DNA from: Patescibacteria group bacterium
Lineage (GTDB): Bacteria; Patescibacteriota; Minisyncoccia; Minisyncoccales; Staskawiczbacteraceae
Direction: 5' to 3'
DNA: 50,628 nt
Assembly: GCA_018895235.1 (NCBI GenBank)
Contig: JAHIOM010000036.1
Span: 1 to 50,628 of the forward strand
In this document: positions 20,060 to 36,971 of the stretch, piece by piece
Numbering within the stretch: the stretch's first letter is position 1
Layout of the letters: each line of letters opens with the position of its first letter
The notes under the pieces: model-generated
Database searches by the model: none
Told to the model about the DNA's origin: nothing
The model's input: only the letters and a program-made list of their open reading frames with translations
Translations under genes and position numbers: made by a program

Positions 20060-20094
20060 GAAAAAAATAATGTCAACTGTCGAAAAATTAATTG

Positions 20095-20128
20095 ACCCGT
20101 CACTACCAATTTTATTGGTGTGAGGGCA
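20095..20128. repeat. Family A element
   Basis: ACCC-G-TCACTACCAA-TTTTA-TTGGTGTGA-GGGCA after AAAAATTAATTG. Confidence 0.75.
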
Positions 20129-20150
20129 AGGGAATAAAAATTATAAAAAT

Positions 20151-20462: not shown

Positions 20463-20477
20463 ACCAAACAGGTTTTA

Positions 20478-20511
20478 ACCCCAGTAGAAGAACAAAGCTC
20501 TCTACGGGGCA
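20478..20511. repeat. Family A element
   Basis: ACCCC-A-GTAGAAGAACAAAGCTCTCTAC-GGGGCA; sibling of 11006-11041. Confidence 0.75.
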
Positions 20512-20521
20512 AATAAAAATT

Positions 20522-20959
20522 ATGGCGAAACAAAGATTTAAAATAATTCCTGCAGTATATTTAATCTTAATTAAGGATGATAAAATTCTTCTTTCTCGAA
20601 GATATAATACTGGTTTTTGCGATGGGGAGTATAGTTTCCCTGCAGGGCATTTAGAGGGAAATGAAACATTCGAAGAAGCTCTTGTTAGGGAAACAGAGGA
20701 AGAAATAGGAATAAAATTAAACCTGAAAGATTTAAAGTTGGTTCATGTTATAGATAGAAAACAACCAAAAGAGGAGAGGGTTGATTTCTTTTTTACAAGC
20801 AGAAAATGGAAGGGCGAACCAAAAATTATGGAGCCTCACAAATGCGATGATTTAGATTGGTTTTCACTCAGTAATCTTCCCGATAATGTAATACCTTATA
20901 TTAGGCAGGTAATTAAATGTGTTTTAACTAATAATTTTTATAGTGAATTTGGTTGGTAA
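20522..20959 (+). CDS. NUDIX hydrolase
   Basis: GHLEGNETFEEALVRETEEEIG Nudix box. Confidence 0.9.
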   Translation: MAKQRFKIIPAVYLILIKDDKILLSRRYNTGFCDGEYSFPAGHLEGNETFEEALVRETEEEIGIKLNLKDLKLVHVIDRKQPKEERVDFFFTSRKWKGEPKIMEPHKCDDLDWFSLSNLPDNVIPYIRQVIKCVLTNNFYSEFGW

Positions 20960-21654
20960 AATTAAAAAACAAAAATAAAATTATGCCAAAGTCTTTTAAT
21001 TATGTTTTTGTTGACGAATCAGGCGATCCCGGTAAACCATATAAAACAGACAAGGGCGGAAATAAAATTCCTACTGGCGCAAGTTTATTTTATATTTTAT
21101 CTGCTGTTTGTGTTGATTCAAAAAAACTATTTGCTATGGAAAATAGAATTATGGAAATAAAGGGTCATTATAGTTATCGTAGCGAATTAAAAGCTCAAAA
21201 TATACCATTAAAAATGTATAAAGATTTATTGGACATAATTAATGAATTGAAAATTAAAATTTATTATAGGCTTATAGATAAAACAAAATATAGAGGAACT
21301 TTTGCGGTTGATGGAAAAAAGAAGTTGCACAATGTTTTTGATGAATATAATTTAGTAAAGTTGGTATCTTTCGCAATTAAAAAATGCAGATTTGATAAGG
21401 CTGAGGTGATTATAGATAGAGCCGATCGCAGATTGTTAGACGGTAGGTTTGATAATTTCAATAATTACTTAATAAATAAAGTTAATACCAAAACAATAAA
21501 AATAGTAGAATTTATTACTCATGTGAACTCGGAATATGTAAATGTGATGCAGATGTCTGATTTAGTAAGTGGTGCTATAAAGGATGACTTTACGGGTAAA
21601 AATAAAGAACTTTTAAAAATTATTAATAAGCGATTTTTGGAAAAAATTTGGTAA
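20953..21654 (+). CDS. DUF3800 domain protein (start may be ATG 20983)
   Basis: YVFVDESGDPG at the N-terminus, QMSDLVSGAI at the C-terminus. Confidence 0.8.
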   Translation: MVKLKNKNKIMPKSFNYVFVDESGDPGKPYKTDKGGNKIPTGASLFYILSAVCVDSKKLFAMENRIMEIKGHYSYRSELKAQNIPLKMYKDLLDIINELKIKIYYRLIDKTKYRGTFAVDGKKKLHNVFDEYNLVKLVSFAIKKCRFDKAEVIIDRADRRLLDGRFDNFNNYLINKVNTKTIKIVEFITHVNSEYVNVMQMSDLVSGAIKDDFTGKNKELLKIINKRFLEKIW

Positions 21655-21662
21655 ATATAAAT

Positions 21663-21733
21663 AAAAAAAAGCGGGCACCCAGACCTGGGACACGCTTCAT
21701 GATTAATAATAGCAGACCTACGCCTATTGTCAA
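21663..21733 (-). ncRNA. Putative small RNA transcription unit convergent with the DUF3800 gene
   Basis: Minus-strand TTGACA(21733-21728)-16 bp-TATTAT(21711-21706) with TGC extension; GC-rich hairpin 21670-21696 followed by a U-tract. Confidence 0.55.
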
Positions 21734-21765
21734 TAGTTTCCAAGGAGTAAGAAATTAATTGAGGA

Positions 21766-21805
21766 ACCCCGGTAGTAGCCCGCCTCAGGCGGATACTACG
21801 GGGCA
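21766..21805. repeat. Family A element in the xseA leader
   Basis: ACCCC-G-GTAGTAGCCCGCC-TCA-GGCGGATACTAC-GGGGCA. Confidence 0.75.
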
Positions 21806-21815
21806 AGTAAAAATT

Positions 21816-23093
21816 ATGGCAAATAATACAGATAAAAAAGAGGATAAAATATTTTCTATTTCAGAATACATTGGATTTCTTAACTCAGAATTAAAAAAAT
21901 GTGCGGCAAAAATTATTGGAGAGGTTGGCAAAGTAGATATTTATCCGAGCGGCCATGTTTATTTTTCGTTAAGAGACGAAAAAGACAAAAGTGTGATTAG
22001 TTGTATAATTTGGAAATCACAATATAAATTATTTGGTATTGAAATAAAAGAGGGCGTTAAGATTATTGCAACTGGTCGTCCGGATATATATAAACAAACG
22101 GGACGACTTTCTTTTATAGCCGAAACAATTGAACTTGCAGGAGAGGGTATATTAAAGAAAGAATATGAAAAATTGAAGAAAAAATTAGGCGACGAAGGAA
22201 TTTTTGAAGAGAGTAAAAAAAGATCTATCCCAGCATATCCTCAAAAGATAGGAATAATTACTTCAAAACAGGGAGCAGTTCTATCAGATTTTCTAAGTAA
22301 TATTGGCAATTATGGTTTTAAAATTAAAATGGTTGATTCCAGAGTCGAGGGACAATCATCTATTACAGATTTACTATCAGCCATTAAGATCATTAAGAAA
22401 AAAGATATCGAAGTTTTGATTATTATGAGGGGTGGCGGTTCTTTCGAATCATTACAGCCGTTTAATAACGAATTATTGGTTAGAGAAGTTGCAAATTTTC
22501 CTGTTCCGGTAATTGCTGCTATCGGTCACGACAAAGATGTGCCGTTAGTTTCCTTAGCCGCAGATCTTGAAGTTTCTACTCCAAGTATTGCCGCCATTAC
22601 GCTCAGTAAATCATGGAAGGAAGCCATTATATTTTTAGAAAGATATGAAAGAAATATTATTGGCGGATATGAAAATATTTTGCAGGACGCCGTTTCTTTA
22701 ATTAATAAATCAATTGATATGGTCCGCGATTCTAAGAACCTGATTATTGACAAGTACAAAAGGGTTGAAAATAAAATGAGAGTTTCACTCCAAAATTTTA
22801 GCAATATCCTTAATAATATTAGTTTAAGGATAGATAATTTAATAGATAGATCTTTTTTTGGCTTAAAATATTTAATTTTAACGGCGCAACAAAATTTAAA
22901 ACACGCTGAGAGAATTATTTCAATTAACAGTCCAGAACGTCAACTTAATTTGGGCTATAGTATTGCCTTTTCTGATGGTAAAATAATCAGAAATACGGAA
23001 GATACTGAAATAGGAAAAAATATAGACCTTCGAGTTGTAGACGGAACAATTATTTCACAAGTAAAAAATATTAATAAAATTAACAAAAAATAA
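21816..23093 (+). CDS. xseA: Exodeoxyribonuclease VII large subunit
   Basis: SGHVYFSLRD, RGGGSFESL, IGHDKD; start placed at AAAATTATG. Confidence 0.95.
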   Translation: MANNTDKKEDKIFSISEYIGFLNSELKKCAAKIIGEVGKVDIYPSGHVYFSLRDEKDKSVISCIIWKSQYKLFGIEIKEGVKIIATGRPDIYKQTGRLSFIAETIELAGEGILKKEYEKLKKKLGDEGIFEESKKRSIPAYPQKIGIITSKQGAVLSDFLSNIGNYGFKIKMVDSRVEGQSSITDLLSAIKIIKKKDIEVLIIMRGGGSFESLQPFNNELLVREVANFPVPVIAAIGHDKDVPLVSLAADLEVSTPSIAAITLSKSWKEAIIFLERYERNIIGGYENILQDAVSLINKSIDMVRDSKNLIIDKYKRVENKMRVSLQNFSNILNNISLRIDNLIDRSFFGLKYLILTAQQNLKHAERIISINSPERQLNLGYSIAFSDGKIIRNTEDTEIGKNIDLRVVDGTIISQVKNINKINKK

Positions 23094-23371: not shown

Positions 23372-23587
23372 ATGCCAGCAAAAGATAATCCTAATCCACC
23401 GAAAAGAAACGAGATTAAAATTGGTGAAGCAGTGTGGATTATTGAAAAAGAACATTATGGTACGCAAAACTTCAAACAGGGGATTGTAAAGGAAATTTTA
23501 ACTTCCAAGAATGTCCATTCGCGCGGCATCAAAGTACGGCTTACTGATGGTTTGGTCGGCCGCGTGCAATGGATAATGGAAGATTGA
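23372..23587 (+). CDS. YwbE family protein
   Basis: GIVKEILTS..HSRGIKVRLTDGLVGRVQ. Confidence 0.85.
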   Translation: MPAKDNPNPPKRNEIKIGEAVWIIEKEHYGTQNFKQGIVKEILTSKNVHSRGIKVRLTDGLVGRVQWIMED

Positions 23588-23610
23588 TAAAAAAAAATGA
23601 AAGAGATGTT

Positions 23611-23671
23611 AAGAACCTCGCCTTCGGCGAGAACCTTGATTCGCTAATGTATAATCATATGATCTTAAATT
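23611..23671 (+). repeat. 61-bp hairpin-plus-promoter element (family C)
   Basis: AAGAACCTCGCCTTCGGCGAGAACCTTGATT-N16-TATGATCTTAAATT. Confidence 0.8.
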
Positions 23672-23922
23672 TAACAATACTTGCGACAGTTGCCGGGGTT
23701 CTAATGGCGTTAGCCAATTACCCTCAGGCGATTAAGATTATAAAAAGGAAAAGCTCAAAAGATGTTTCTTTGCTGACTTTTTCTATTATGTTGTTTGGAA
23801 CGATTGTCTGGTTTATTTACGGGATTAGCATTGGCAACCTGCCGGTGATTATTTCTTACGGTATTGGTTTAACCGGCTCTTCTTTTGTAATATTGGCATA
23901 TTTTATTTATAGGGGTAGGTAG
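23647..23922 (+). CDS. SemiSWEET/MtN3 (PQ-loop) sugar transporter; 5' end remodelled by the element
   Basis: YPQAIKIIKRKSSKDVS, three TM helices. Confidence 0.8.
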   Translation: MYNHMILNLTILATVAGVLMALANYPQAIKIIKRKSSKDVSLLTFSIMLFGTIVWFIYGISIGNLPVIISYGIGLTGSSFVILAYFIYRGR

Positions 23923-24012
23923 AAATTAAGGGGTTGAAAAAGAATAAGATTGTGTTAAAGTAGATATTCTTAACGGCCCTTTAACAAAACAAAAACTAGA
24001 AGGAGCGAAAGA

Positions 24013-24963
24013 ATGAATAAGAATGAATTTGAAGAGTTTTTTAAACGCTATGAAGGAAATCCGATTTTAACACCAGAAATTTGGCCCTATAAAGTATCAT
24101 CAGTTTTTAATCCGGGTGCAATAAAATTCAATAATGAAGTATTGCTTTTGGTACGGGTTGAAGATAGGGAAGGTCATTCGCATTTAACTATTGCTACGAG
24201 CAAAGATGGAAAAACAAATTGGCATATAAATCCCGAACCAGCGTTAGCAGCAGAACCAGAGTTTGGTGAAGCGATATTTGGGTTAGAGGATCCGAGGATT
24301 GTTTGGTCAGAAGAGCGACAAGAATATATGATTACCTGTGTTTCTTTCTTTGAAGGAGTGGCTGGAGAACCCCCTGGTATTTCTCTGATAACAACCAAAG
24401 ATTTCTCTGATTTTAAACGCTTGGGTCGTCAGTTAATACCCCCGAACAAAGATGCTTCTTTACTTCCTAAAACTATTAAAGGATACTATGCCCTTATACA
24501 CAGGCCGATTGTTGATGGTAGGACCGATATTTGGGTTTCTTTTTCCAAAGACCTGAATTTTTGGGGAAAAGAGAGGGTTTTAATTCCTGCTAGAAATAGA
24601 ACCTGGGATAATGCTAGGGTGGGATTAGGACCGCCGCCGATTGAAACGCCAGAGGGATGGTTGGTTATCTATCATGGAGCAAAAGATACAGCATCTGGCA
24701 CTATTTATCGAGTTGGCCTGGTTTTATTGGATTTAGAAACCCTTGAGGTGATTCGTCGGAGCAGAGATTGGGTCTTTGGTCCGAAAGAATATTATGAGAG
24801 AGTGGGCGATGTAGATGATATTGTTTTCCCTTGCGGTGCCATTGTTGATGAAAAAACAAATGAACTTTTAGTTTATTATGGGGCTGCGGATTCAGTGGTA
24901 GCGTTAGCCACTGCAAATTTAGACGATGTTTTGACTTATTTAAAAAAGTGCACCGAATATTAA
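24013..24963 (+). CDS. Glycoside hydrolase family 130 mannoside phosphorylase/glycosidase
   Basis: VFNPGA, EDPRI, NKDA, HRP, YERVGDVDDIVFPCG. Confidence 0.9.
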   Translation: MNKNEFEEFFKRYEGNPILTPEIWPYKVSSVFNPGAIKFNNEVLLLVRVEDREGHSHLTIATSKDGKTNWHINPEPALAAEPEFGEAIFGLEDPRIVWSEERQEYMITCVSFFEGVAGEPPGISLITTKDFSDFKRLGRQLIPPNKDASLLPKTIKGYYALIHRPIVDGRTDIWVSFSKDLNFWGKERVLIPARNRTWDNARVGLGPPPIETPEGWLVIYHGAKDTASGTIYRVGLVLLDLETLEVIRRSRDWVFGPKEYYERVGDVDDIVFPCGAIVDEKTNELLVYYGAADSVVALATANLDDVLTYLKKCTEY

Positions 24964-25040
24964 CGAATATTAATCAAAAATGCCTCGCTTTTGCGGGGCT
25001 TTTATTTTTAAGAAAAATAAAGTAAGATAAATAATTATTT

Positions 25041-25235
25041 ATGGAATGCAGACAAAAAGAAAATTTAAAAAGATGCCCTTGCACCTATCCCGATTGTCCG
25101 AGAAAGGGGATTTGTTGCGAATGTTTAAAATATCATTTAGCGAGCAAGGAATTACCTGCTTGCTATTTTTCAAAAGAAGCGGAAAAGACCTATGACCGTT
25201 CAGTTGAAAAATTTATTCAAAATAAAACAAAATGA
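25041..25235 (+). CDS. Small Cys-rich protein (DUF6485-like)
   Basis: CPCTYPDCPRKGICCECLKYH..LPACYF. Confidence 0.65.
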   Translation: MECRQKENLKRCPCTYPDCPRKGICCECLKYHLASKELPACYFSKEAEKTYDRSVEKFIQNKTK

Positions 25236-25855
25236 ATGTTTTTGAAAGATTATACAAAGAACTTAGAAAGAAATACGGGACGCCTAAGGGACAATGGAAA
25301 CTTTGGTGCAAAAGGCCAAAAACCAAAAGAGAAAGAGAAAAAGTGATAATCGGGGCAATTCTAACCCAGAGGACAAATTGGAAGAACGTAGAATTAGCCC
25401 TAAATAATTTAAAAAAGGCAAAAATAAATTCGTTAAGGGATATTTATCGATTAGGCGCAAAGAAATTAGCGCCCTTGATTAAACCATCGGGATTTTATAA
25501 AACCAAGGCGCAATATCTGCTTAATTTAACCAAGTTTGTTATCACAGAGGGGTGGTTAGATAATACTCGCCATACGATAAAAAAGGCGGAACTCGAAAAA
25601 TTAAGGGAAGAATTACTAGAATTGAAAGGCATTGGGCCAGAAACAGCAGATAGTATTTTGCTTTACGTCCTAGACAAACCAATTTTCGTGATAGACGAAT
25701 ATACCAGAAGATTAGTTAAAAATCATAATTTGGCAAGCAGAACTGATTATCAATTTTTACAAAAATTGTTTGAGGAAAATTTAAGAAAGGATTACCGCTT
25801 ATACCAAGATTTCCACGCTTTAATCGTTATTAACGCTAAAAATTCAATTAATTAA
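25232..25855 (+). CDS. Endonuclease III-like HhH-GPD glycosylase, lacking the C-terminal 4Fe-4S motif
   Basis: AILTQRTNW, LKGIGPETADSILLY, FVIDEY. Confidence 0.85.
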   Translation: MNVFERLYKELRKKYGTPKGQWKLWCKRPKTKREREKVIIGAILTQRTNWKNVELALNNLKKAKINSLRDIYRLGAKKLAPLIKPSGFYKTKAQYLLNLTKFVITEGWLDNTRHTIKKAELEKLREELLELKGIGPETADSILLYVLDKPIFVIDEYTRRLVKNHNLASRTDYQFLQKLFEENLRKDYRLYQDFHALIVINAKNSIN

Positions 25856-25859
25856 AAAA

Positions 25860-26459
25860 ATGACACTTATTTTAACTGATGAAAACTTTGAAAAAGAAAT
25901 ACAGAGCATAGATAAACCGGTTTTAGTTGATTTCTTTGCTACTTGGTGCGGACCCTGTACTACTTTAGATCCAATTTTAGAAAAAATAGCTGATGATCTA
26001 AAAGATGAAATTGTTTTGGTAAGGGTTGAGCTTGATAATATTCCTATTACTGCTCAAAAATTTGGAATTGATAGAATTCCAGCAGTTGTTCTTTTTAGGG
26101 GTGGAAAACCAATTAGCGGTTTTATCGGGTTAAGGACAGAGGAATTTATTAAAGAATGGCTGGAAAAAACAATAAAACAACCAGAAGACAATATCCAAGA
26201 AAAAGTTGAAGAATTAAATAGATGGTATGCTAATTACGCTAAAGAAAACGGATTTAACCTGAATCCCAATAAAGAGATGGTCCAAAGATTAATAAGGGGT
26301 TTGCTGGAAAACGAGAAAAAACACGGCCAACGATATTGTCCTTGCAGAAGAGTTACGGGAGATAAGGAAGCGGATGCAAAGAACATTTGTCCCTGTTATT
26401 ACCATCTTAATGAGATTAAAAAAAATGGGCAGTGTTTCTGCGGGTTGTTCTTAAATTAA
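25860..26459 (+). CDS. Thioredoxin fused to ferredoxin-thioredoxin reductase catalytic subunit
   Basis: WCGPC; then YCPCR, ICPCYYH, CFCGLF. Confidence 0.85.
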   Translation: MTLILTDENFEKEIQSIDKPVLVDFFATWCGPCTTLDPILEKIADDLKDEIVLVRVELDNIPITAQKFGIDRIPAVVLFRGGKPISGFIGLRTEEFIKEWLEKTIKQPEDNIQEKVEELNRWYANYAKENGFNLNPNKEMVQRLIRGLLENEKKHGQRYCPCRRVTGDKEADAKNICPCYYHLNEIKKNGQCFCGLFLN

Positions 26460-26588
26460 GAATGGCAAAGTAACTATTTTTTAACTTAACCTTATGATAA
26501 AATCACGAGGTTTTTGTTTTGACTTTTTTTTACTGTTTGGTATAGTAATAGAGGTATTTTTAAAAGTTCTTTAAAAAAGGAGAGTCTA

Positions 26589-27677
26589 ATGAAAAAACGA
26601 AAATGTGATATGATGGGCCGGGGTATTTTGCCGATTAATGCAAAACTTCTGGTTGAAAAAGTTTCTTTTAAGTTAATTATTGAAAGTTTTGGCAGAACTT
26701 GTTTTGAAGCGCGAAATGTTGCTGAGGGAGCAAAACTTTTTAAAAAAATGATTGAAGAAGGTGATACTATTTGGCTTGGCATCGCTGGAGCCGGAATAGT
26801 TGGGGGTTTAGGCGGATATGTTATTGAGCTTATTAAAAGGGGGTTTATAGATGCAATTTGCACCACTGGTGCTCAAGCATATCATGATCTACATTTTGCC
26901 TTTGGTTTGCCTGTAAAACAAGGCGATTCAAAAGCTAACGACAACAAACTCCACAAGCAAAGGATAGTAAGAATTTATGATATGTATATTGACGAAGAAA
27001 AAACACTTTTAGCGCAGGATGAATTAATTAGAGAATTTTGTTCGCACCAGTTGCTTCCACTACGTACACTTGAAAATTTATCAATGTCTAGCGCAGATTT
27101 TAATTTTCGGCTCGGGAATTATGTTCTTGAAACGGCGAAGTTTCCCGAACGATCATTTCTTGCTGCCGCAGCAGATAATGGCGTGCCAGTATATTTTGAT
27201 TCTGGCTCTAACCACTCGATTGGAATGAATCTTGCTGCCGAGTATCTTAATGGATTAAATGTGGAAATTTCATCAAGTTTAGACATTTTGGAAAGCGCGG
27301 CAATTGTTTATAACTCAAAGACAACTGGTTTTTTCGAACTTGGCGGCGGAGGACCCAAGAATTTTATCCAGCAAACAAGTCCAACAATAAAACAAATTCT
27401 AGGAATAGATTTTGAAGGAGCTGACCGAGGGTTACAGATAACAACTGCATTGGAACGGGACGGCGGATTATCAGGCTGTACTTTCAATGAGGGTGTTACT
27501 TGGGGCAAATATAAAAAACCTTCAAAAGATCTTGTTCAAATATTCTGCGAATATTCTATTGTTTTTCCATTGATTGCTGGTTATGTTTTGGAAAATTGTA
27601 AACCAAGAAAACCAAAACAGCTTGTTTTGCAAAATGATAGGATGTTGGAAAAACTTAAAAAAGATAGAAAAAATTAA
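26589..27677 (+). CDS. Deoxyhypusine synthase-like protein
   Basis: GGGGPKNF, DGGLSGCTFNEGVTWGK. Confidence 0.85.
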   Translation: MKKRKCDMMGRGILPINAKLLVEKVSFKLIIESFGRTCFEARNVAEGAKLFKKMIEEGDTIWLGIAGAGIVGGLGGYVIELIKRGFIDAICTTGAQAYHDLHFAFGLPVKQGDSKANDNKLHKQRIVRIYDMYIDEEKTLLAQDELIREFCSHQLLPLRTLENLSMSSADFNFRLGNYVLETAKFPERSFLAAAADNGVPVYFDSGSNHSIGMNLAAEYLNGLNVEISSSLDILESAAIVYNSKTTGFFELGGGGPKNFIQQTSPTIKQILGIDFEGADRGLQITTALERDGGLSGCTFNEGVTWGKYKKPSKDLVQIFCEYSIVFPLIAGYVLENCKPRKPKQLVLQNDRMLEKLKKDRKN

Positions 27678-27699
27678 ATAGAAAAATAAGCCCTTTATT

Positions 27700-27728
27700 T
27701 TGACATAAAGGGTTTTTTATTGTATAAT
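27700..27728 (+). promoter_or_regulatory. typA promoter, with its -35 in the loop of the upstream terminator hairpin
   Basis: TTGACA-17 bp-TATAAT; CCCTTTAT/ATAAAGGG stem. Confidence 0.65.
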
Positions 27729-27741
27729 TGGTTTTTATATT

Positions 27742-29568
27742 ATGAATAAGATAAGAAACATCGCTATAATTGCTCACGTTGACCACGGAAAAACCACATT
27801 GGTGGATGCGCTTTTGCGTCAATCAAAAACCAATTTAAGCAAAGAGGTTGCTAACCAGGAATGCATAATGGATAGCAATGAAATAGAAAGAGAAAGGGGG
27901 ATTACCATCTTTTCTAAAAATGCATCTGTTCTTTACAAGAATGTGAAGATTAATATTATTGATACTCCTGGCCACGCTGACTTTGGAGGAGAAGTAGAAA
28001 GGGTTTTAAATATGGCTGATGGTTGCTTGCTTTTAGTTGATGCAAAAGAGGGACCTATGCCTCAAACAAGATTTGTTTTGAAAAAGGCCTTAGAAATGGG
28101 CCATAAGATTATTTTGGTTATAAACAAAATAGACAAAGACGGAGCCAGACCAGATTTTGCCTTAGAAGCAACCATGGAATTATTTTTAGAATTGGGCGGA
28201 CATGATCAAACCTTAAGCTTTCCCGTGGTTTATGCTTCAGGAAAAGAGGGAAAGGCAGGTAAAACCCCTGATATTAATAAAATGAAAGATATTATTCCTC
28301 TTTTTGAAGAAATTATCCAACATATTCCTTCGCCAATTGGAGATTTTCAAAAACCTTTGCAGATTTTAGTTACTTCTATCAGCGGAGATGATTTTAAGGG
28401 AAGAATTGCTGTTGGTAGGGTATATAACGGTACGATAAAAGCCAATCAAGAGATAATCCATATAAATAGGAATGGCCAATTTAATAAATACAAACTAGTT
28501 TCTTTAATGACTTTTTCCGGGTTAAATAGAGTTGATGCTTCAGAGGTTTTAGCTGGAGATATTGTTGCCTTAGCCGGGATACCGGATGTAACAATCGGCG
28601 AGACAATAACAGACCCTGTAAATCCCCAAGTATTGCCCCTAATAAACATAGAAGAACCGACTGTGAAGATGACTTTTATGATTAACAATTCTCCTTTTGC
28701 CGGCAAAGAAGGCCAGTTTCCGACCTCAAGGCAGATAAGGGAAAGATTATACAAAGAACTGGAAACAGACGTGGCCCTGAAAGTAGAAGACACTAATGAT
28801 GGAAAATGGGTTGTTTCTGGCAGGGGAGAACTGCATTTGTCTATTTTGATAGAAAGAATGCGCAGAGGGGGTTATGAATTTCAAGTTTCAAGGCCTCAGG
28901 TTATTACGCGAGAAATAAATGGTAAAATGATGACTCCTTACGAAAAGGTTTTTATTGAAGTCCCAGAAAAATACCACGGCACAGTGATACAAAAGTTAGG
29001 CGCAAGAAAAGGTGAAATGGTGGAGATGAGAAGCGCCAACACCATAGTATTTTTGGAGTTTATAATCCCGACAAGAGGGCTTTTCGGATACAGAAGCGAA
29101 TTTTTAACTGATACAAAGGGTTTGGGGATAATAAATACTGCTTTTTACCAATACCAACCAGATCCTGGAAATTGGCAGGAAAGAGCCCAAGGGTCTTTGG
29201 TTTCTCATGAAACAGGAGGAACCAATCTTTATGGCTTGAGAAATGTTCAAGATAGAGGGGTATTATTCTTGGGTCCGGGAATTACGGTTTATGAGGGCCA
29301 GGTTGTTGGCCAAAATTCAAGACCTAATGATATAAGGGTGAATGTTTGTAAAGAAAAACAACTTTCAAATATGAGGTCAAGGGGCGAAGGAGTGACAGAA
29401 CATTTTAATGTCCCAAAAACAATGGGGCTAGAAGATGCTTTAGAATATATCGGGGACGATGAATTGGTTGAGATTACTCCAAAGAGTATTCGCATAAGAA
29501 AAATCTATTTAAGCGACAACGACCAAAGAAGAGCAAATAGGAAAGAAAGAGAAAATAGTGTAAAATAA
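27742..29568 (+). CDS. typA: Translational GTPase TypA/BipA
   Basis: [31 protein letters not shown]-terminal [20 protein letters not shown]. Confidence 0.97.
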
Positions 29569-29627
29569 AATAGATAAGATAAAGGTCGGAGATTTTAATT
29601 AACAAATGAAAACAAAAAATATTTAAT

Positions 29628-29903
29628 ATGGTACAAGATGTTATAAAAAAAGACGGGACAAAAGTACCGTTTGACGCAGAAAAAATAAAAAAAGCAATTA
29701 CAGCCGCTGCTGCAGCGACTGATCTTTCAGAGGAAAGAAAAAATGAAGTAGCAGAACAGGTATCGGATACGGTAGTTCAAACATTAGAAAGTAAGAACGA
29801 AGCAACGACAGGCGAAATTAAAACAAATGTTCTTGCTGAATTGGATAAAGTAGAACCTTCCGTATCTGCGGCTTGGAGAAAATACGACCAGGAAAATAAA
29901 TAA
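29628..29903 (+). CDS. Stand-alone ATP-cone domain protein
   Basis: VIKKDGTKVPFDAEKI. Confidence 0.85.
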   Translation: MVQDVIKKDGTKVPFDAEKIKKAITAAAAATDLSEERKNEVAEQVSDTVVQTLESKNEATTGEIKTNVLAELDKVEPSVSAAWRKYDQENK

Positions 29904-29921
29904 TTGTTTGTTTTAATGGAA

Positions 29922-29957
29922 AAAAGCGCCCTACACCTCGAAGTGTAGGGCGCTTTT
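29922..29957. terminator. Bidirectional intrinsic terminator
   Basis: AAAAGCGCCCTACAC-CTCGAA-GTGTAGGGCGCTTTT between convergent genes. Confidence 0.85.
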
Positions 29958-29985
29958 GAAATTTAGTGATGGAATGTCTTTCAAC

Positions 29986-31146
29986 TTAACTAATCGGCAG
30001 TTCTATAAAAAAGGTGCTTCCTTTACCGGGACCTTCAGATTCTACCCAGATTTTGCCGTTGTGGGCTTCAATAATTTTGCTTGATATATAAAGGCCTATT
30101 CCTCTTCCGGTCGTAAAAAGCTTTTTAGCCTCTTCTCCTCTTTCAAAAATTCCGCTAAACAAAGTTTTCATATCTTCTTTTGATATTCCTATTCCTGTAT
30201 CCTGACTTAATATTCGCAATTTTTTATCTGAAATTTGAAATTTTATAGTTATTCCTCCTTGGGCGGTATATTTTATACCGTTATCAAAAATATTAAATAG
30301 CGCTACTTTAAGTTTTTCCGGGTCAGCTTTAATGGGGGGTAATTTTTCCGCAGGCTTATCTAACTTAAGATAAATATTCTTAGTCTGGGCCGTGGGTTGG
30401 AGTTCTTCTACTACCTCTTCCAGAATAGACTTTATTTCAATATTTGGCTGTAAAGATACTACCTTTTTGTCCAATTGAAATTGGGAGATATCCAATAATT
30501 CATTGACTGTTTTAATTAATCTATTGGCAGATGTTTGAATTTTTGAAATTACTTCTTTGGTTTTAAGCTGAACTTTACCGTAGGCCCCTGTTAAAATAAG
30601 TTCCGCATATCCTTTCATTGATGTTAAAGGGGTTCTCAAATGATGTTGGCATGCCATAATAAACTGATTTTTTGATTCATCTAACTTTTCCAATTTTCCA
30701 TAAGCTTCTTTTAGTTCTTTGGTTCTTTGTTCGACTTGATTCTCAAGTCCTTTAGCTAGTTCTTCTAAGGCTTCTTTAGCTTTTCTTTGGGCAAAATAAG
30801 CTTCGATAATTTTCTCCGTACTCTTGTTAAAAAAACGGCCATAAACAATAACTAAAATAAAAACAGAAATAATTACTAATTTTGAAATCTTTCCTTCGAT
30901 TAGAAAAGAAAGAACGAAAATAGAAAAAGTTAAAATCAAGCTGGTTATTAGATACTGATAAAACAAGCAATCACGGAATTTCAATTCACAATATCGACAA
31001 CGCGGAGCTGGGAAATAATTAAGATTTCTGGTTAACCAGCAATTTTCGTTAATATATTCGGGTTTTCCTATTTCCGAATGAATCAAGGTTCTCGCCGAAG
31101 GCGAGGTTCTTATTTTTTCTTTTTGAAATTTTTCAACTTTTTCCAC
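29986..31146 (-). CDS. Sensor histidine kinase
   Basis: HHLRTPL H-box; DNGIKY, DTGIG, GIGL, GKGSTF. Confidence 0.92.
   Translation of the reverse strand: MEKVEKFQKEKIRTSPSARTLIHSEIGKPEYINENCWLTRNLNYFPAPRCRYCELKFRDCLFYQYLITSLILTFSIFVLSFLIEGKISKLVIISVFILVIVYGRFFNKSTEKIIEAYFAQRKAKEALEELAKGLENQVEQRTKELKEAYGKLEKLDESKNQFIMACQHHLRTPLTSMKGYAELILTGAYGKVQLKTKEVISKIQTSANRLIKTVNELLDISQFQLDKKVVSLQPNIEIKSILEEVVEELQPTAQTKNIYLKLDKPAEKLPPIKADPEKLKVALFNIFDNGIKYTAQGGITIKFQISDKKLRILSQDTGIGISKEDMKTLFSGIFERGEEAKKLFTTGRGIGLYISSKIIEAHNGKIWVESEGPGKGSTFFIELPIS
31080..31111 (-). repeat. Truncated family C element inside the histidine kinase coding sequence
   Basis: Encodes RTSPSARTLI. Confidence 0.75.
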
Positions 31147-31172
31147 TTTTTAATTCAAAATTAGAGGTTCTT

Positions 31173-31233
31173 AATTCAAGATTATATGATTTTACATTAG
31201 CGAATCAAGGTTCTCGCCGAAGGCGAGGTTCTT
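31173..31233 (-). repeat. Family C element facing the histidine kinase, followed by an internally deleted copy (31152-31172)
   Basis: TTGATT-N16-TATAAT on the minus strand. Confidence 0.8.
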
Positions 31234-31657
31234 ATCTCTTAAAAATCTTTTTAAAAACAGCGTACATTATAGAGGCTACGCAAACACCAGTGAAGCTAGC
31301 CAAAAGCATTAAAAAAGATACTATTAAAACTAAAATCCAGGCAAAATCAACAAATTTTCCAAAATAGGAAAATAAAAAACCAACGAAAAGAAAGGTTCCC
31401 GACACACTACAGGTAAAAGCCAATTCCCCCAATTCTCTTTTGATTGGTTCCGACTTATCCCCTAATAGTTTCCTTAAGATAAAAAAATGAAGATGATAAA
31501 GAAGATTATATTTTACTGAAAAAACCTCCAAGATCATTAATGTACCAAGTATCAAGACCAACCAAGGATTTCGAAGAAAAAAAGCAAGCAAGGCCAAAAG
31601 CCCATAAATGATTCTGGAAAATTTTAAAGAGCGATCATAGATTAAACATTGTTGCAT
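31232..31657 (-). CDS. DUF4395-like membrane protein
   Basis: Four TM segments, terminal GVCVASIMY. Confidence 0.6.
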   Translation of the reverse strand: MQQCLIYDRSLKFSRIIYGLLALLAFFLRNPWLVLILGTLMILEVFSVKYNLLYHLHFFILRKLLGDKSEPIKRELGELAFTCSVSGTFLFVGFLFSYFGKFVDFAWILVLIVSFLMLLASFTGVCVASIMYAVFKKIFKR

Positions 31658-31739
31658 AAAAGTATTAAAATTATTTTTTAAAATATTCTTTTATTTATTT
31701 TTACTTATTTACGACTTTTTTACAAACACAAAGAGGCAG

Positions 31740-33101
31740 TTACCATTGGCCTGAACATATCTTTTTTACAGCCAAGCATGCTTTTCTCACATCTTCAAGA
31801 TCGTTATATATGTAAAAACTTAATCTGCAACTTGCAGGAGGATTTAATTCAAAATAATGATGAGCTAAAGTTGCGCAATGGCAACCAGCACGCGATTCTA
31901 CGCCTAATTTAGTTAGTCCTTCAGCAATTTCAAAAGGATTTTTATCTCTATCTGTGAATGCAATTAAAGAAGTTCTGTCTTCGGGATTTTTTGGACCATA
32001 GATTTTTATTGATGGTATCTCGCCTAATATTTCTAGCGCTTCTCCTATTAAAATTTTCTGATGAAACTCTACGTTTTTCATGGCTTCCTCTATATCCTTT
32101 CTTTCCAATTTTTTATCAGTCATAAAATACTTATATTTAACAGGATTTAGGGAAAAATCTATCAATAACCTTATAGCCTGAGCAGAAAGAATTGTTCCTA
32201 AAATATTGGGGGTTCCTGCTGTAAATTTCCAGGGAAGAACGTTATATTCTACTTTTTCCGGGCTAACCTTTCCTTCCGCGATCATGTCTCCTCCATAAAG
32301 AAATGGCCTCATTCTTTCAAGTAATTCCTGCCTTGCGTATAAAGCTCCGACGCCAAAAGGAGCAAGCATTTTGTGAAATGACCAGACAAGAAAATCCGCA
32401 TCTAAGTCTTTGACATCAGTAAATATATTCGGCACAACCTGCGCGCCATCAATTAATAGATAAGATTTTTTTTCGCCATCCGGTTGTATATAACCACTTG
32501 AATCAGCGATTTCTCTAATTTTTTTTATTGGATTTTTTGTTCCCAAGAAGTTTGAGGCACCCGAGCAACATATAAGTTTAGTCCTTTGGTCTACTAAAGA
32601 TTTTAGATGAGTTAAATCAAGTTCGCCCGTTTCTTTGTTAAACTTTACTAGCCTGTATTCCACATTGACTCCAAACTTTGATAATATTTCTTTGCATAGC
32701 CCATACCAGGGCACATAGTTTGAATTGTGCTCCATAAACGTTGAAATTACGTTGTCTCCGTCCTTAAATTCGGTCATCAAAGAATACATTACTGAATTAA
32801 TCGCCTCGGTGGCATTTCTATATAAAACGATGTTTTTTCTTGATGGAGCATTGATAAACTGCGCGATAGTATCATAAGAAGATTCAAACCTTTCAGTAGT
32901 CAATAAAGAGGCAGCAGACTGCCCCCTATGAACATTGTCGTATTGTACAATAAGTTTTTCAAATAAGTTCAATAATTGAACTGGAACCTGCGTGCTCGCT
33001 GCATTATTTGAAATAGTTCTTCCGGCTTTTATTGCGGGAAAAAATTTTCTTATTTTTTTTGTATTAATCATAATTTTTAAATCCAACAAATCGTTGCACA
33101 C
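31740..33101 (-). CDS. Cysteine desulfurase-like class V aminotransferase (SufS type)
   Basis: NNAAST, EHNSN, DGAQ, SFHKM, RAGCHCA, RLSFYIYN. Confidence 0.9.
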   Translation of the reverse strand: MCNDLLDLKIMINTKKIRKFFPAIKAGRTISNNAASTQVPVQLLNLFEKLIVQYDNVHRGQSAASLLTTERFESSYDTIAQFINAPSRKNIVLYRNATEAINSVMYSLMTEFKDGDNVISTFMEHNSNYVPWYGLCKEILSKFGVNVEYRLVKFNKETGELDLTHLKSLVDQRTKLICCSGASNFLGTKNPIKKIREIADSSGYIQPDGEKKSYLLIDGAQVVPNIFTDVKDLDADFLVWSFHKMLAPFGVGALYARQELLERMRPFLYGGDMIAEGKVSPEKVEYNVLPWKFTAGTPNILGTILSAQAIRLLIDFSLNPVKYKYFMTDKKLERKDIEEAMKNVEFHQKILIGEALEILGEIPSIKIYGPKNPEDRTSLIAFTDRDKNPFEIAEGLTKLGVESRAGCHCATLAHHYFELNPPASCRLSFYIYNDLEDVRKACLAVKKICSGQW

Positions 33102-33153
33102 AATTTTCCAAACGCAGCAAAATTTAACCGCCAGTATCCAGTATGTAACAATC

Positions 33154-33603
33154 CTAGCCCAATTTCTCTTTAACTAACTTAACCAATTCCGAAGGAGGAC
33201 AATTTGTTTTAATAATATATTTTTCTATGCTAAGGTTCTCGCACTTTTTTTTCAGTTCGGGATTAATGTAGTTAGTAAAAACAAAAACGGGCACCTCTTT
33301 TGTCTTCGCGCTTTGTCTGATCTTTTCTAGAACCTGGGTACCGTCGATATCCGGCAAAATAATGTCTAATAAAATCAGACTGGGCGTTTTCGCGTCTCCC
33401 GCTTCTATTTTTTCAATACACTTTACCATATCTTGACCAAGAGTGAAAGCTTCAACCTTAAAACCGGCGTTTTCTAGGGCGGTTTTATAAACTTCAATTA
33501 TAAGCGTATCATCTTCGACTAAAAATATAAGAACCCCTCGCTTCGCTCGAGAACCTTGATTCGCTGATGTACGATTATATAATCTTGAATTTGTTTTTGG
33601 CAT
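33154..33603 (-). CDS. Single-domain response regulator with a 21-aa repeat-derived N-terminal insert
   Basis: MPKT-[21 aa]-IFLVEDD, LLDIILP, FTN, IK. Confidence 0.85.
   Translation of the reverse strand: MPKTNSRLYNRTSANQGSRAKRGVLIFLVEDDTLIIEVYKTALENAGFKVEAFTLGQDMVKCIEKIEAGDAKTPSLILLDIILPDIDGTQVLEKIRQSAKTKEVPVFVFTNYINPELKKKCENLSIEKYIIKTNCPPSELVKLVKEKLG
33529..33591 (+). repeat. 63-bp family C element, antisense within the response regulator gene
   Basis: AAGAAC..GAGAACCTTGATT-N16-TATAATCTTGAATT. Confidence 0.8.
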
Positions 33604-33794
33604 GTTTTTTTTTGGATATATTATTTTATGTGTTGTTGTTATTATTATTATATTACAATTGTCCAAAATTTTAAAGAAGGGAAGAGGGAATAACTCACAA
33701 TTCCAAAAATATGGTACAATTAGTGACAAAGTCACAATAATTACAAGTTTGCGCCTTTATAAAAATAGTATTAAAATATATTAAGATACAAAAT

Positions 33795-33934
33795 AAAAAC
33801 CTCGCCCTTGGCGAGAACCTTGATTCGCTAATGTATTGCAGCTCACGCTGCATAATTGTGCGTTCGGTTGAAATACAAAAATTTATTTTTGCATTTCTTC
33901 CTTGCTTACAATTATAATTATATAATCTTGAATT
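33795..33934 (+). repeat. Family C element split by a 79-bp insertion (33836-33914), ending at the gspE/pilB ATG
   Basis: 5' part to ..CGCTAATGTA, resumes at TAATTATATAATCTTGAATT. Confidence 0.7.
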
Positions 33935-35680
33935 ATGAAAGTTGATCTAAAACAGTTAAAATCGTCGATAATAGAAATGGGACTGCTTAATAAAAAGCAA
34001 TGTGAAGACGCTTCTAAAAGAGCGGAAAAAAACCATCAAAGCTTTGAAGACCTGCTTATTATTGAAGGCCTGATTTCGCAAAATAAACTTTCAAATTTAA
34101 AAGCGTTTATTTTGGGGGTGCCGTTTGTGAATCTAGAAGGGGTGATTATCCTTCCAGAAATTTTAAAAATTATTCCGGAACCGATAGCCAGGACTCACAA
34201 TATTATTGCTTTTAGAAAAGACAGCAACAACTTAGAGGTGGCGATGATTAATCCGGAAGATCTGGCGACAGTCGATTTTATTGGGAAAAAAGCAAACTTA
34301 AGAATATTGCCCCGTCTTACCACGCCCGATAGCATCAAAAACGCCCTAGGGCAATATCAAAAAACTCTTGAAAAAGAATTCGGCAATATTATTAAAAAAG
34401 AAACCGACGATATGTTGATCAAGACAGATGGAAAAAAAGGAGGGGATGAGGAATTGAAGAAGGTGGCCGAAGAGTTGCCGATAATCAAGATAGTGGATAC
34501 CTTGCTCAAACACGCCATATTGCAAGGGGCTTCGGATATTCATATTGAGCCGTCTGAAAAAGAAATGATAGTTCGTTACAGGATTGATGGTATTTTGCGG
34601 GACGTTATGGTTTTGCCGGTACTTATTAATTCCGGAATCGTAGCGAGAATTAAAGTATTATCTAATTTAAAACTGGATGAACACCGCCTTCCGCAAGACG
34701 GAAGGTTTAAATTCGAAAGCGGGGAAGATAATTATTCTGTTCGTGTTTCTATTTTGCCAATTTTTGATGGTGAGAAAATTGTAATGCGTCTTTTGTCAGA
34801 AAACACACAAGCAATTTCCCTAGAACAACTGGGCTTAAGCGGTGCGGCTTTGGATATGGTTGAGGGAAAATTAAGAAAGCCGGTCGGAATGACTTTGGTT
34901 ACGGGTCCAACCGGATCGGGCAAGACAACCACTCTTTATTCGGTGCTTGAAATTTTGAATACTTCCCAAGTGAATATTTCCACTATTGAAGACCCTGTTG
35001 AATACAGAATACCTAGAATCAATCAAACGCAAGTCAATTCTAAAATAGGTCTTACTTTTGCCTCAGGTCTTAGATCATTGGTCAGACAAGACCCGAATGT
35101 TATCATGGTCGGAGAAATACGCGACAACGAAACCGCTTCATTGGCGATTAATGCCAGTTTAACAGGCCACTTGGTTTTATCCACTCTTCACACAATTAGT
35201 GCCGCAGGAGCCATTCCCCGTTTAATTGATATGGAGGTTGAGCCTTTTTTGCTTTCTTCAACCCTAAACATTATTATCGCTCAAAGATTGGTAAGAAAAC
35301 TTTCTTCTAAAAAAGAAAAATACACATTAAAAAACGAGGATTTAAAAAATCTATCCAAATATTGCGATTTAGACAGGGTCTCGCGGGTTTTAAAAGAAGA
35401 AAAAGTAATAAAAACCAAAGACACCATAAAAGATGTTGTTTTTTATCATCCTCAACCCTCGCCAGAATCGCCTGATGGGTATAGCGGAAGAATTGGTATT
35501 TATGAGGTTTTAAATGTTACAGAAACAATAAAAGAGATGATCGTTAAACGCAACACCTCGGACGAAATCCAAGCTCAAGCGCAAAAGGAGGGAATGAAAA
35601 CGATGATTGAGGACGGGTTTGTTAAGGCTGCTCGAGGAATCACCACTATTGAAGAAGTGTTAAGAGTTATTATGGATTAA
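33935..35680 (+). CDS. pilB: Type IV pilus/T2SS assembly ATPase (PilB/GspE family)
   Basis: GPTGSGKTTT, TIEDPVE, LVRQDPNVIMVGEIRD, TGHLVLSTLH. Confidence 0.9.
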   Translation: MKVDLKQLKSSIIEMGLLNKKQCEDASKRAEKNHQSFEDLLIIEGLISQNKLSNLKAFILGVPFVNLEGVIILPEILKIIPEPIARTHNIIAFRKDSNNLEVAMINPEDLATVDFIGKKANLRILPRLTTPDSIKNALGQYQKTLEKEFGNIIKKETDDMLIKTDGKKGGDEELKKVAEELPIIKIVDTLLKHAILQGASDIHIEPSEKEMIVRYRIDGILRDVMVLPVLINSGIVARIKVLSNLKLDEHRLPQDGRFKFESGEDNYSVRVSILPIFDGEKIVMRLLSENTQAISLEQLGLSGAALDMVEGKLRKPVGMTLVTGPTGSGKTTTLYSVLEILNTSQVNISTIEDPVEYRIPRINQTQVNSKIGLTFASGLRSLVRQDPNVIMVGEIRDNETASLAINASLTGHLVLSTLHTISAAGAIPRLIDMEVEPFLLSSTLNIIIAQRLVRKLSSKKEKYTLKNEDLKNLSKYCDLDRVSRVLKEEKVIKTKDTIKDVVFYHPQPSPESPDGYSGRIGIYEVLNVTETIKEMIVKRNTSDEIQAQAQKEGMKTMIEDGFVKAARGITTIEEVLRVIMD

Positions 35681-35690
35681 TAAAGAATAT

Positions 35691-35751
35691 AAGAACATCG
35701 CCTTCGGCGAGAACCTTGATTCGCTAAGGTGTAATTATATAATCTTAAATT
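35691..35751 (+). repeat. Family C element upstream of pilC
   Basis: TTGATT-N16-TATAAT; ATAT on both flanks. Confidence 0.8.
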
Positions 35752-35756
35752 ATATT

Positions 35757-36971
35757 ATGCCGCGCTATTCCTATATCGCAAAAGATTTTAAAGGGAAAAT
35801 AAAATCAGGGATTTTAGAAGCTGAAAATGAATCGGCTCTTACCCAAATCCTCAAAGATAAAGGATATTTTTTGATTAAAACGGACACTGGGACAATTCCT
35901 AAAAAAAGATTTGAGATTCATTTGCCGTTTTTTAATCATATTTCTTTGGTTGAAAAATTAATGTTTACCAACAATCTTCAACTTATGGTTAGCGCTGGAG
36001 TGTCTTTGCCTCGCGCCATCCGTATTTTATCGGAACATACTGAAAACAAAAAATTTAAGAAGATTCTTTGGGAAATTTCAGAAAAAATCACTAAAGGGAA
36101 TAATCTTTCCGAATCTTTGCTGGACTACCCCAATGTCTTTCCTGAGATATTTTTCCGTATGATAGAAGTAGGTGAGGAATCGGGAACATTGGAAAAGGTT
36201 TTAGATATTTTGGCGAAACAAATGGAAAAAGATCACGAATTAAAATCTAGAGTAAGGGGCGCCATGATTTATCCTGCCGTAGTGTTTTCTTTTATGTTTG
36301 TTATTGGTATTGTGATGATGATTATGGTTGTGCCAAAATTTTCAGAAATGTTTAACAGCCTTGGAATTACACTTCCTCTTACTACGCAAATACTCATCTT
36401 TGTCGGAAATTTATTAGCAAATTATTGGTACACGCTTCCAATAATTTTTTGTCTTTTATTCCTATTTTTACGTTTTGCTCTAAAAACGAACTCGGGCAAA
36501 TTATTTTGGGACAAGTGGTCGCTGAAGATCCCCATCATAGGAGGGATTATTAAAAAAACCAACACCACTCAAACAGTAAGAACCCTTGGTTCGCTTATCG
36601 CTTCAGGGATGCCCATTGTTAGATCTTTAGAAATTGTTTCAAAAACCTTGGGAAATATTTATTATAAAAAAGCTATTGCTGAAACCGGGGAAAAGGTGAA
36701 AAAGGGTTCCAGTTTGGCTGCGGCCCTTCAACAATACAAAAATCTTTACCCTCAACTGGTTATTCAAATAACTGAAATTGGAGAAGAAACAGGTAAAACA
36801 TCAGTTGTTTTGGGAAAAATCGCTGAATTCTTTGAAAAAGATATTGACAACATTACTAAAAATTTCTCTTCTATTATAGAACCGTTTTTAATTATCTTTA
36901 TTGGTCTTGCCGTCGGATTTTTCGCTTTATCTATAATCCAACCTCTTTATAGTATGTTGGGTGCAGTATGA
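35757..36971 (+). CDS. pilC: Type IV pilus platform protein (PilC/GspF)
   Basis: GEESGTL, GAMIYP, GEETG, IIEP. Confidence 0.9.
   Translation: MPRYSYIAKDFKGKIKSGILEAENESALTQILKDKGYFLIKTDTGTIPKKRFEIHLPFFNHISLVEKLMFTNNLQLMVSAGVSLPRAIRILSEHTENKKFKKILWEISEKITKGNNLSESLLDYPNVFPEIFFRMIEVGEESGTLEKVLDILAKQMEKDHELKSRVRGAMIYPAVVFSFMFVIGIVMMIMVVPKFSEMFNSLGITLPLTTQILIFVGNLLANYWYTLPIIFCLLFLFLRFALKTNSGKLFWDKWSLKIPIIGGIIKKTNTTQTVRTLGSLIASGMPIVRSLEIVSKTLGNIYYKKAIAETGEKVKKGSSLAAALQQYKNLYPQLVIQITEIGEETGKTSVVLGKIAEFFEKDIDNITKNFSSIIEPFLIIFIGLAVGFFALSIIQPLYSMLGAV

Follow-up and report, generated by a model that had tools for sequence, protein, structure and literature searches.

The window studied here, the complete 50,628-nucleotide (nt) contig C36 from the genome of an ultra-small groundwater bacterium, a Paceibacteria-type member of the Patescibacteria, carries several copies of a small repeat that is a mobile insertion. 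Each unit, 62–64 nt long, consists of T-AAGAACC, a variable hairpin, AGAACC, TTGATT-N16-TATAAT and CTTGAATT, in that order, and copies adjoin genes for pilus and signalling proteins. Mobility had already been suggested in the first-pass annotation of the window, and is borne out by empty sites in a congeneric contig, an in-frame insertion in a coding region, differences in presence and copy number between strains, and a patchy taxonomic distribution. We favour, with a probability of roughly 0.6, a reading in which the repeat moves as a non-autonomous element and also serves as a portable boundary of transcription units, with a putative promoter role that we deduce from sequence, orientation and position.

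Copies of the Repeat in the Window

The genome assembly to which the window belongs (G000) comprises 837 kb in 40 contigs with a G+C content of 36%, and its closest relatives by DnaA and PilC bear the labels Candidatus Staskawiczbacteria or Nealsonbacteria. Repeat finding, BLAST and a profile search located five full copies, of which one is interrupted by a nested insert, as well as two partial ones, at the places where they had been reported in the first-pass annotation. With at most 3 mismatches allowed, the 25-nt core of the repeat has 5 matches in the window against 0.00 expected (100 shuffles), and the copies at 23610–23671, 31173–31234 and 35690–35751 are 92–95% identical to one another. 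The copies and the genes to which they relate are the following (window coordinates; type A denotes units with the promoter-like module, see below).

23610–23671, plus strand: full type A copy; hairpin 23617–23631, −35 TTGATT 23636–23641, −10 variant TATGAT 23658–23663
29986–31146, minus strand: histidine kinase gene (HisKA + HATPase_c), of which GTG 31146 corresponds to the ancestral ATG
31080–31112, minus strand: copy of the 5' module only (TAAGAACC, hairpin, AGAACCTTGATTC), in frame in the remodelled 5' end of the kinase gene
31152–31172, minus strand: mini copy of 21 nt, AAGAACCTCTAATTTTGAATT, with both repeat ends kept and the interior deleted, head to tail behind the full copy
31173–31234, minus strand: full type A copy; −35 at 31208–31203, −10 at 31186–31181; 26 nt before the kinase GTG 31146
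33154–33603, minus strand: response-regulator receiver gene, holding a 21-codon repeat insertion
33529–33591, plus strand: full type A copy of 63 nt with a different hairpin; in frame, antisense, after codon 4 of the response-regulator gene
33794–33836, plus strand: 5' part of the split copy, with hairpin and −35 region, upstream of pilB
33837–33913, plus strand: nested insert of ~77 nt that splits this copy; a copy of another small element at C12:26763–26835
about 33914–33934, plus strand: 3' part of the split copy, ATAATTATATAATCTTGAATT, with TATAAT 8 nt before the pilB ATG 33935
33935–35680, plus strand: pilB (T2SSE ATPase)
35690–35751, plus strand: full type A copy between the pilB stop codon 35678–35680 and the pilC ATG 35757; −35 at 35716–35721, −10 at 35738–35743
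35757–36971, plus strand: pilC (T2SSF platform protein)

The distances from repeat end to start codon, i.e., 0 nt for pilB (ATG 33935), 5 nt for pilC (ATG 35757) and 26 nt for the histidine kinase (GTG 31146), are as originally claimed, and these three genes had also been guessed correctly; the further neighbours encode a PQ-loop protein, DUF4395, a class-V aminotransferase and the response-regulator receiver. Four window copies possess TTGATT-16-TATAAT, with a score of 10/12, and the 23610 copy has TATGAT. The latter copy lies in frame within the open reading frame (ORF) 23569–23922, and the likely start codon of the PQ-loop gene, ATG 23659, falls in its −10 box. This ATG of the PQ-loop (SemiSWEET-like) gene arises from an A-to-G change in that box (TATAAT to TATGAT). 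In the 31173–31234 copy, the first TAA doubles as the stop codon of the DUF4395 gene. Assemblies made independently from other groundwater samples span the window copies without differences and, consequently, the copies are not assembly artefacts. No polymorphism was detected at the window copies, all of which are fixed in the DNA runs of the window's own population. An ORF of 60 amino acids (aa) downstream of the embedded copy (33602–33784), which lacks both a Pfam match and a counterpart in the relative, was treated as spurious.

The insert nested in the split copy is 89% identical, over 73 nt, to an element located between rplB and rpsS in G000 (C12:26763–26835). This element ends ...CTTACAATTATAATT right at the rpsS ATG and looks like a second family of start-codon-docked repeats, nested in the first at pilB.

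Empty and Filled Sites

Orthologous loci were compared for empty sites, a check that the first-pass annotation had proposed. A congeneric contig (L151/L154), which is syntenic with the window (identities of 81% for PilC, 75% for the histidine kinase and 77% for the response regulator), is empty at the pilB–pilC, response-regulator, pilB-upstream and DUF4395–kinase sites. For the 23610 copy no empty site was obtainable, since none of 40 relatives has an orthologue of the PQ-loop gene. The gap between pilB and pilC measures 12 nt in the congeneric contig vs. 76 nt in the window, 62 of which are repeat; among 23 further relatives whose fetched locus included both genes, 21 have a gap of 2–30 nt, and the two longer gaps hold other, unrelated insertions. 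The pilB–pilC spacer is an insertion hotspot. In this junction, a close relative carries a different AT-rich repeat (L152:3928–4001), and L153:1140–1636 contains a gene of the PF05635 family (23S_rRNA_IVP-type four-helix bundle) between arms of heptamer repeats.

The response regulator of the relative begins MPKT|IFLVEDD; in the window, precisely 63 nt (21 codons) are inserted in frame between T4 and I5 and translated from the antisense strand of the repeat. The native extended −10 box upstream of pilB, TGTTAAAAT, is 10 nt away from the ATG in the congeneric contig. TGTTAAAAT persists in the window about 150 nt upstream of pilB, separated from the ATG by the split copy, whose own TATAAT is 8 nt from the ATG; in other relatives the TGnTATAAT boxes native to pilB lie at 6–12 nt. 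Between the DUF4395 and kinase genes, the gap is 3 nt in the congeneric contig vs. about 85 nt in the window, which holds, in order, the full copy, the mini copy, the GTG at 31146 and then the module-1 copy inside the coding 5' end. Residue 26 of the window kinase aligns with residue 4 of that of the relative, i.e., there are 22 extra N-terminal residues in the window.

Filled and empty sites were also encountered elsewhere. In another species, two tandem units with a combined length of 128 nt lie between rplB and rpsS (L037:2349–2478). In related strains the flanks of this site are joined exactly, i.e., the site is empty, both in X20 (run type unspecified) and in X37 (DNA run), and X37 additionally shows a 65-nt "goes back" joint, which is consistent with an extra repeat unit. 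The number of tandem units at this site differs between related strains, being 0, 2 or, probably, 3. Type A copies occur at the rplB–rpsS junction in further genomes too (L084). The spacer between rnpA and yidC contains a copy in G000 and none in an 83% relative; in a relative with 90% DnaA identity (L157) a remnant aligns at a score of 14 vs. −2.7 ± 3.8 for shuffles and is apparently a decayed repeat copy. The segment of G000 concerned (C7:25764–28041) is likely the origin region since it holds dnaA and dnaN; the type A copy between rnpA and yidC provides the TAA that ends rnpA.

These comparisons bear on two other explanations. The first-pass annotation had considered a regulon-like shared promoter, in the strict sense a vertically inherited promoter or operator of one transcription factor or alternative sigma factor for pilus and signalling genes. 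The presence of five copies in a 12-kb locus with a two-component system and pilus genes is in line with this, and the AGAACC direct repeats could be half-sites. However, the sites are empty in the congeneric genome and in most other relatives examined, the downstream genes are unrelated across copies and genomes, the AGAACC spacing varies from 9 to 22 nt, and tandem arrays exist in the family. Since the copies are insertions specific to a lineage and precede unrelated genes, a regulon is extremely unlikely. Binding of a response regulator to the direct repeats was dropped for the same variation in AGAACC spacing. A likeness to dif/Xer sites, seen by eye, was also dropped, on account of an incorrect central spacing and a copy number of 13.

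Alternatively, the repeats may serve a cassette system of the attC or PeSL kind as recombination sites, conserved linkers at which homologous or site-specific recombination reshuffles the adjacent genes. The window indeed also has an array of accessory genes joined by linkers (repeat families D4, D5 and D15), PeSLs unite a promoter with a stem-loop and mediate shuffling (PMC2839356), and the pilB–pilC junction is a hotspot for other elements as well. At the window sites, however, the repeat stands alone between conserved core genes, no gene having been gained or lost, and filled and empty sites differ by precisely the repeat unit. This makes a role as cassette sites very improbable.

Insertion Signature

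The repeat inserts as a precise unit after A-W-A-T, in an oriented fashion, without inverted termini or target duplication. Of 119 copies, 116 have T at position −1 of the A-W-A-T left flank, and the two bases after the repeat are mostly AA. Comparison of the ends and their folding did not reveal terminal inverted repeats, AAGAACC on the left and CTTGAATT on the right not being complementary. At the response regulator there is no target duplication, because the flanks (AAATAT|TGTTTT) leave at most 1 nt of ambiguity; the 3 nt of ambiguity (AAT) at the L037 site are identical to the repeat's own end. Out of 122 array-leading copies, 34 terminate the upstream gene in frame with a stop codon made up of the repeat's T and the AA that follows. 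One frame is open on each strand of the consensus unit, and 63 nt equals 21 codons, which explains how copies survive within the 5' ends of the genes for the response regulator, the kinase and the PQ-loop protein.

Modules, Types and Folding

In G000 the repeat occurs in two forms that share a first module, composed of T-AAGAACC, the hairpin and AGAACCTTGAWT. In type A (13 copies) this is followed by the promoter-like module CGCTAAKGTATAAT..TATAATCTTGAATT, and the roughly 11 type B copies have a second hairpin, GTTTGCC-loop-GGCAAGCCATTGTC, in place of the promoter. Units are arranged head to tail as B-B-A at C7:85.9 kb and as B-A at C7:17.5 kb. Type B copies look like terminators, since both hairpins are followed by a T-rich tail on the opposite strand. 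Type B sites are found on contigs C7, C9/C29, C10, C19, C27 and C40 (e.g., C7:31549–31672 and C19:15287–15353), and two are in terminator-like orientation between genes.

The TTCG hairpin that was initially taken as the consensus is indeed present but is just one of at least 97 hairpins in the family. Among 157 copies there are 97 distinct hairpin sequences with 18 different 4-bp stems, the outer stem having on average 3.0 base pairs vs. 0.61 ± 0.09 in shuffles. The constant part is the surrounding AAGAACC ... AGAACC frame. In three copies, i.e., one on contig C27, the split copy in the window and one in genome G025, a hairpin is present within the spacer. The internal left hairpin pairs alone and the 40-nt promoter module is unstructured; folded as DNA, neither strand of this module gave any structure in addition to the left hairpin. 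Downstream of the hairpin, read in the promoter direction, comes AGAACCTTGATT, without a U-tract, and on the opposite strand a scan calls the hairpin plus TTCTTATTTT a terminator. A search against Rfam 15 returned only tRNAs at the gathering threshold, and no match with E ≤ 1 in the region 31000–36000 or at four other copies.

These data are also relevant to the idea that the repeat acts at the RNA level, as a transcribed leader, a Shine-Dalgarno-independent translation-initiation module or a small-RNA gene. Copies adjoin start codons without a Shine-Dalgarno sequence, the variation in the hairpin is compensatory, and the terminator hairpin after some copies could delimit a short transcript. 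The lack of an Rfam family at E ≤ 1 does not fit with this idea, however, nor does a fold that is confined to the left hairpin, whose sequence is not conserved, and the repeat tolerates translation in either orientation. We therefore regard an RNA-level function as improbable.

The Repeat as a Putative Portable Promoter

The repeat has a TTGACA-like −35 hexamer and a TATAAT-like −10 hexamer within the 16–18 nt distance of sigma-70 promoters, and the spacing is 16 nt in 71% of the 161 pooled distinct type A copies. In the −10 hexamer (114 copies of 41 nt), T−12, A−11 and T−7 are kept in 92–98% of copies, and position −8 in only 61%. A scan of G000 for orientation bias, one of the checks advised at the outset, revealed that 13 out of 13 type A copies face the next gene; in the family as a whole, 82 of 112 copies share the orientation of the next gene and 30 do not. 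An ORF starts at most 8 nt from the copy end in 34 of 120 cases on the sense side vs. 3 of 120 in the antisense control. The distances between copy end and ORF start peak at 0 and 3 nt, without a Shine-Dalgarno sequence. The native extended −10 boxes of G000 peak 6–9 nt before ATG codons and, hence, leaderless starts are native in this genome. The placement of the repeat near start codons appears to match this leaderless promoter geometry of the lineage. A perfect TATAAT is present in 67% of ATG-proximal copies compared to 43% elsewhere (p = 0.012). As regards replication-strand bias as a possible cause of the orientation, local GC skew follows the gene strand, and the copies on the dnaA contig occur in both orientations on either side of dnaA.

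Several observations weigh against a promoter role. Among the RNA sequencing runs searched for the window, none was found to hold it. Matches to a promoter-like consensus show scarcely any enrichment in this AT-rich DNA (54 vs. 44 ± 6 in shuffles). The 30 copies mentioned above do not face a gene, about 13 copies are directly followed by a terminator-like hairpin, and at 23610 the likely start codon is inside the −10 box. The distance from the −10 box of the repeat to the ATG, 8–12 nt, is slightly longer than the native 6–9 nt. Furthermore, CGCTAA, G19, A21, A27 and CTTGAATT are conserved as well as the hexamers or better, indicating that something besides RNA polymerase also constrains the sequence of the repeat. 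Finally, the oriented AWAT|AA target, often the stop codon itself, in combination with spacers of a few bases would on its own bring the right end beside the next start codon, in the orientation of that gene, so that target preference and tiny spacers could yield much of the start-codon docking and orientation bias without promoter selection.

It may thus be argued that the repeat lacks a promoter role and is a purely selfish or structural unit of the REP/BIME or PATE type, in which TTGATT...TATAAT...CTTGAATT is conserved as the sequence by which the mobilizing enzyme recognizes the right end, and whose closeness to start and stop codons follows from the target and the tiny spacers. The equal or stronger conservation of positions outside the hexamers, the copies that face a terminator or no gene at all, and the commonness of consensus promoter matches in AT-rich DNA support this view, as do the use of the repeat's TAA as the upstream stop codon, with a right flank that begins with AA, and the existence of type B, which has the left module and no promoter. 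Yet the hexamers, the 16-nt spacing and the pattern of variation in the −10 box all fit sigma-70, the asymmetry between sense and antisense starts is strong (34 vs. 3), and perfect TATAAT boxes are enriched beside ATGs. Moreover, at pilB the repeat parts the native leaderless promoter from its ATG, yet brings a TATAAT at the native distance. We consider a purely selfish repeat rather unlikely. The complete outward promoter proposed in the first-pass annotation agrees with what the copies show in sequence, orientation and start-codon distance, although the proximity is partly explicable by target preference and short spacers.

If the repeat is indeed a mobile element with a portable promoter, the outward promoter of an inserted unit would restart transcription 0–12 nt before the next start codon, and this restart would reproduce the leaderless promoter geometry that is native to the lineage. 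Insertions into tightly packed operons would thereby stay viable, and the downstream gene would acquire its own promoter. Proposed cases are the pilB–pilC junction, the DUF4395–histidine kinase junction and the stretch between the pilB promoter and the pilB ATG. The hairpin may attenuate read-through or serve the mobilizing enzyme. The initial suggestion that the cassette has rewired the pilus and signalling locus is plausible for pilB, pilC and the histidine kinase but not for the response-regulator copy, nor for the 23610 copy on account of the position of its likely start codon.

Distribution and Candidate Mobilizing Enzymes

The exact pattern of module 1 plus the −35 region was found in >115 stretches in species-representative genomes, nearly all of them metagenome-assembled genomes of Patescibacteria; the viral contigs scanned yielded 0 matches. 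In an even sample of the order, the repeat is present in 94 of 401 genomes and 70 of 246 genera, with 0–39 copies each (a control with the reversed pattern gave 2 hits). Within the window's own family it occurs in just three genomes, of which G000 is an outlier with 20–22 copies. Whole units form tandem arrays of 3–5 copies that finish on a start codon in other genomes, and a copy with an identical hairpin resides at a non-orthologous site in another genus.

Two types of enzymes were considered as mobilisers, and both were dropped. The sole Y1_Tnp gene of G000 (C11:68206–68568) encodes an IS200-like TnpA. The hairpins at the ends of this element differ from those of the repeat and are confined to its own ends: in the region C11:68100–68700, GGAAACCCCGC...GGCGGGG hairpins occur on both sides of the tnpA gene (149 aa) and nowhere else in G000. 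The order-wide association is weak; in the 401 genomes, Y1_Tnp hits were obtained in 65% of carriers vs. 49% of non-carriers (odds ratio 1.9, p = 0.009, without phylogenetic control), and in this survey Y1_Tnp was not found in five genomes with high copy numbers. The Ssn nuclease gene of the SRM repeats is a small single-domain GIY-YIG gene flanked by a repeat (PMC11893778). Ssn-type GIY-YIG genes were rejected because they are not flanked by the repeat studied here: none of the four GIY-YIG open frames of 79–95 aa in G000 has a flanking AAGAACC hairpin, and one of them is flanked by a different hairpin, CACCCGGTTAAATAAT.

Comparison with Known Systems

Among the closest counterparts are the Correia elements (CREE/NEMIS) of Neisseria, which are small, gene-less, multi-copy intergenic repeats whose mobility was deduced from filled and empty sites (Delihas, 2011; PMC3184786). 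Outward promoters, often 5' of genes, are attributed to them where this source cites Siddique et al. (2011) (Delihas, 2011; PMC3184786). The repeat described here is likewise small, gene-less and multi-copy, has filled and empty sites and a putative outward promoter, and is often located 5' of genes. However, Correia elements are 104–157 bp long with terminal inverted repeats and TA flanks, whereas our repeat measures 62–63 nt, has one sub-terminal variable hairpin, forms head-to-tail arrays and bears no sequence similarity to them. Since it lacks inverted termini and target duplication, it is not a miniature inverted-repeat transposable element.

Closest in design are the PeSL (promoter-early stem-loop) cassettes of T4-type phages, which combine an intergenic strong sigma-70-type promoter with a stem-loop (PMC2839356). 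Both consist of a promoter, putative in our case, and a stem-loop, and both precede many unrelated genes. PeSLs are phage-borne, contain Shine-Dalgarno sites and conserved GGGG/CCCC stems, and spread with neighbouring ORFs by recombination, while the repeat described here is chromosomal, enters sites on its own as a unit of exact length and directly precedes start codons that have no Shine-Dalgarno sequence. As its insertions bring no genes along and it is not phage-borne, we do not class it as a PeSL.

IS200/IS605 elements insert 3' of a short target tetranucleotide, and our repeat similarly inserts after a short specific motif (AWAT). With REP/BIME-RAYT systems and IS200/IS605-derived PATEs it also shares the absence of inverted termini and duplication, the oriented insertion, a sub-terminal hairpin with conserved flanks, and a mosaic or tandem organization. 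Sub-terminal hairpins at both ends, a trait of IS200/IS605 and REP-RAYT, are found in type B, which has two, whereas type A has only the left one. Unlike in REP-RAYT and IS200-derived systems, G000 contains no cognate Y1 gene with the same flanking hairpin and, in the absence of a matching Y1 transposase, membership of the REP/PATE group is unproven. The REP2 repeats of Neisseria provide a promoter, a ribosome-binding site and a start codon before genes, and the pneumococcal BOX elements are modular, with a tandemly repeated middle module (PMC3184786). Neither is related in sequence to our repeat and, unlike REP2, it does not bring a ribosome-binding site. BOX is not known to act as a promoter.

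Our literature search did not retrieve a paper joining Patescibacteria with leaderless promoters or with small interspersed repeats, and the family, although widespread, is apparently undescribed. It may even represent a new class of mobile element, i.e., a frame-preserving punctuation cassette of 62–63 nt, specific for AWAT, that would combine a stop codon, a structure-conserved hairpin, a complete promoter and the spacing of a leaderless start. Such a cassette would spread horizontally among Patescibacteria and split packed operons into separately transcribed genes. It would be moved by an enzyme that is not recognized as a transposase, which is invoked because neither Y1 HUH nor Ssn proteins track with the repeat. 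We put this extended interpretation forward tentatively and regard it, as a whole, as doubtful.

Other Repeats in the Window

Other repeat families occur at 10107–21837, including hairpins of the CCCCAGTTAAATA...TTTAACGGGGCAAG type just 5' of start codons. These resemble the hairpins around a small GIY-YIG gene (C10:22983–23186) and also the hairpin inserted in the spacer of the G025 copy (L001:1524–1585). A 300-nt stretch is duplicated at 93% identity (13641–13940 and 20145–20444). Directly after a tRNA-Lys gene (48622–48697), a 152-nt inverted repeat (48690–48841 and 50341–50492, 99% complementary) encloses 1499 nt; this segment could be an insertion sequence or an invertible segment.

Implications

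Almost nothing is known experimentally about transcription signals in Patescibacteria (also known as CPR, the Candidate Phyla Radiation), most of which are unculturable. A 62-nt unit that is placed before many unrelated genes in at least 94 genomes is a candidate portable promoter of the CPR. Its distribution also indicates that streamlined genomes of 0.6–0.9 Mb tolerate bursts of small repeats, with up to 39 copies, within operons and even within genes. The signature of the insertions, i.e., after AWAT, with no duplication, no inverted ends and no matching transposase, points to a mechanism of mobilization that is yet to be identified.

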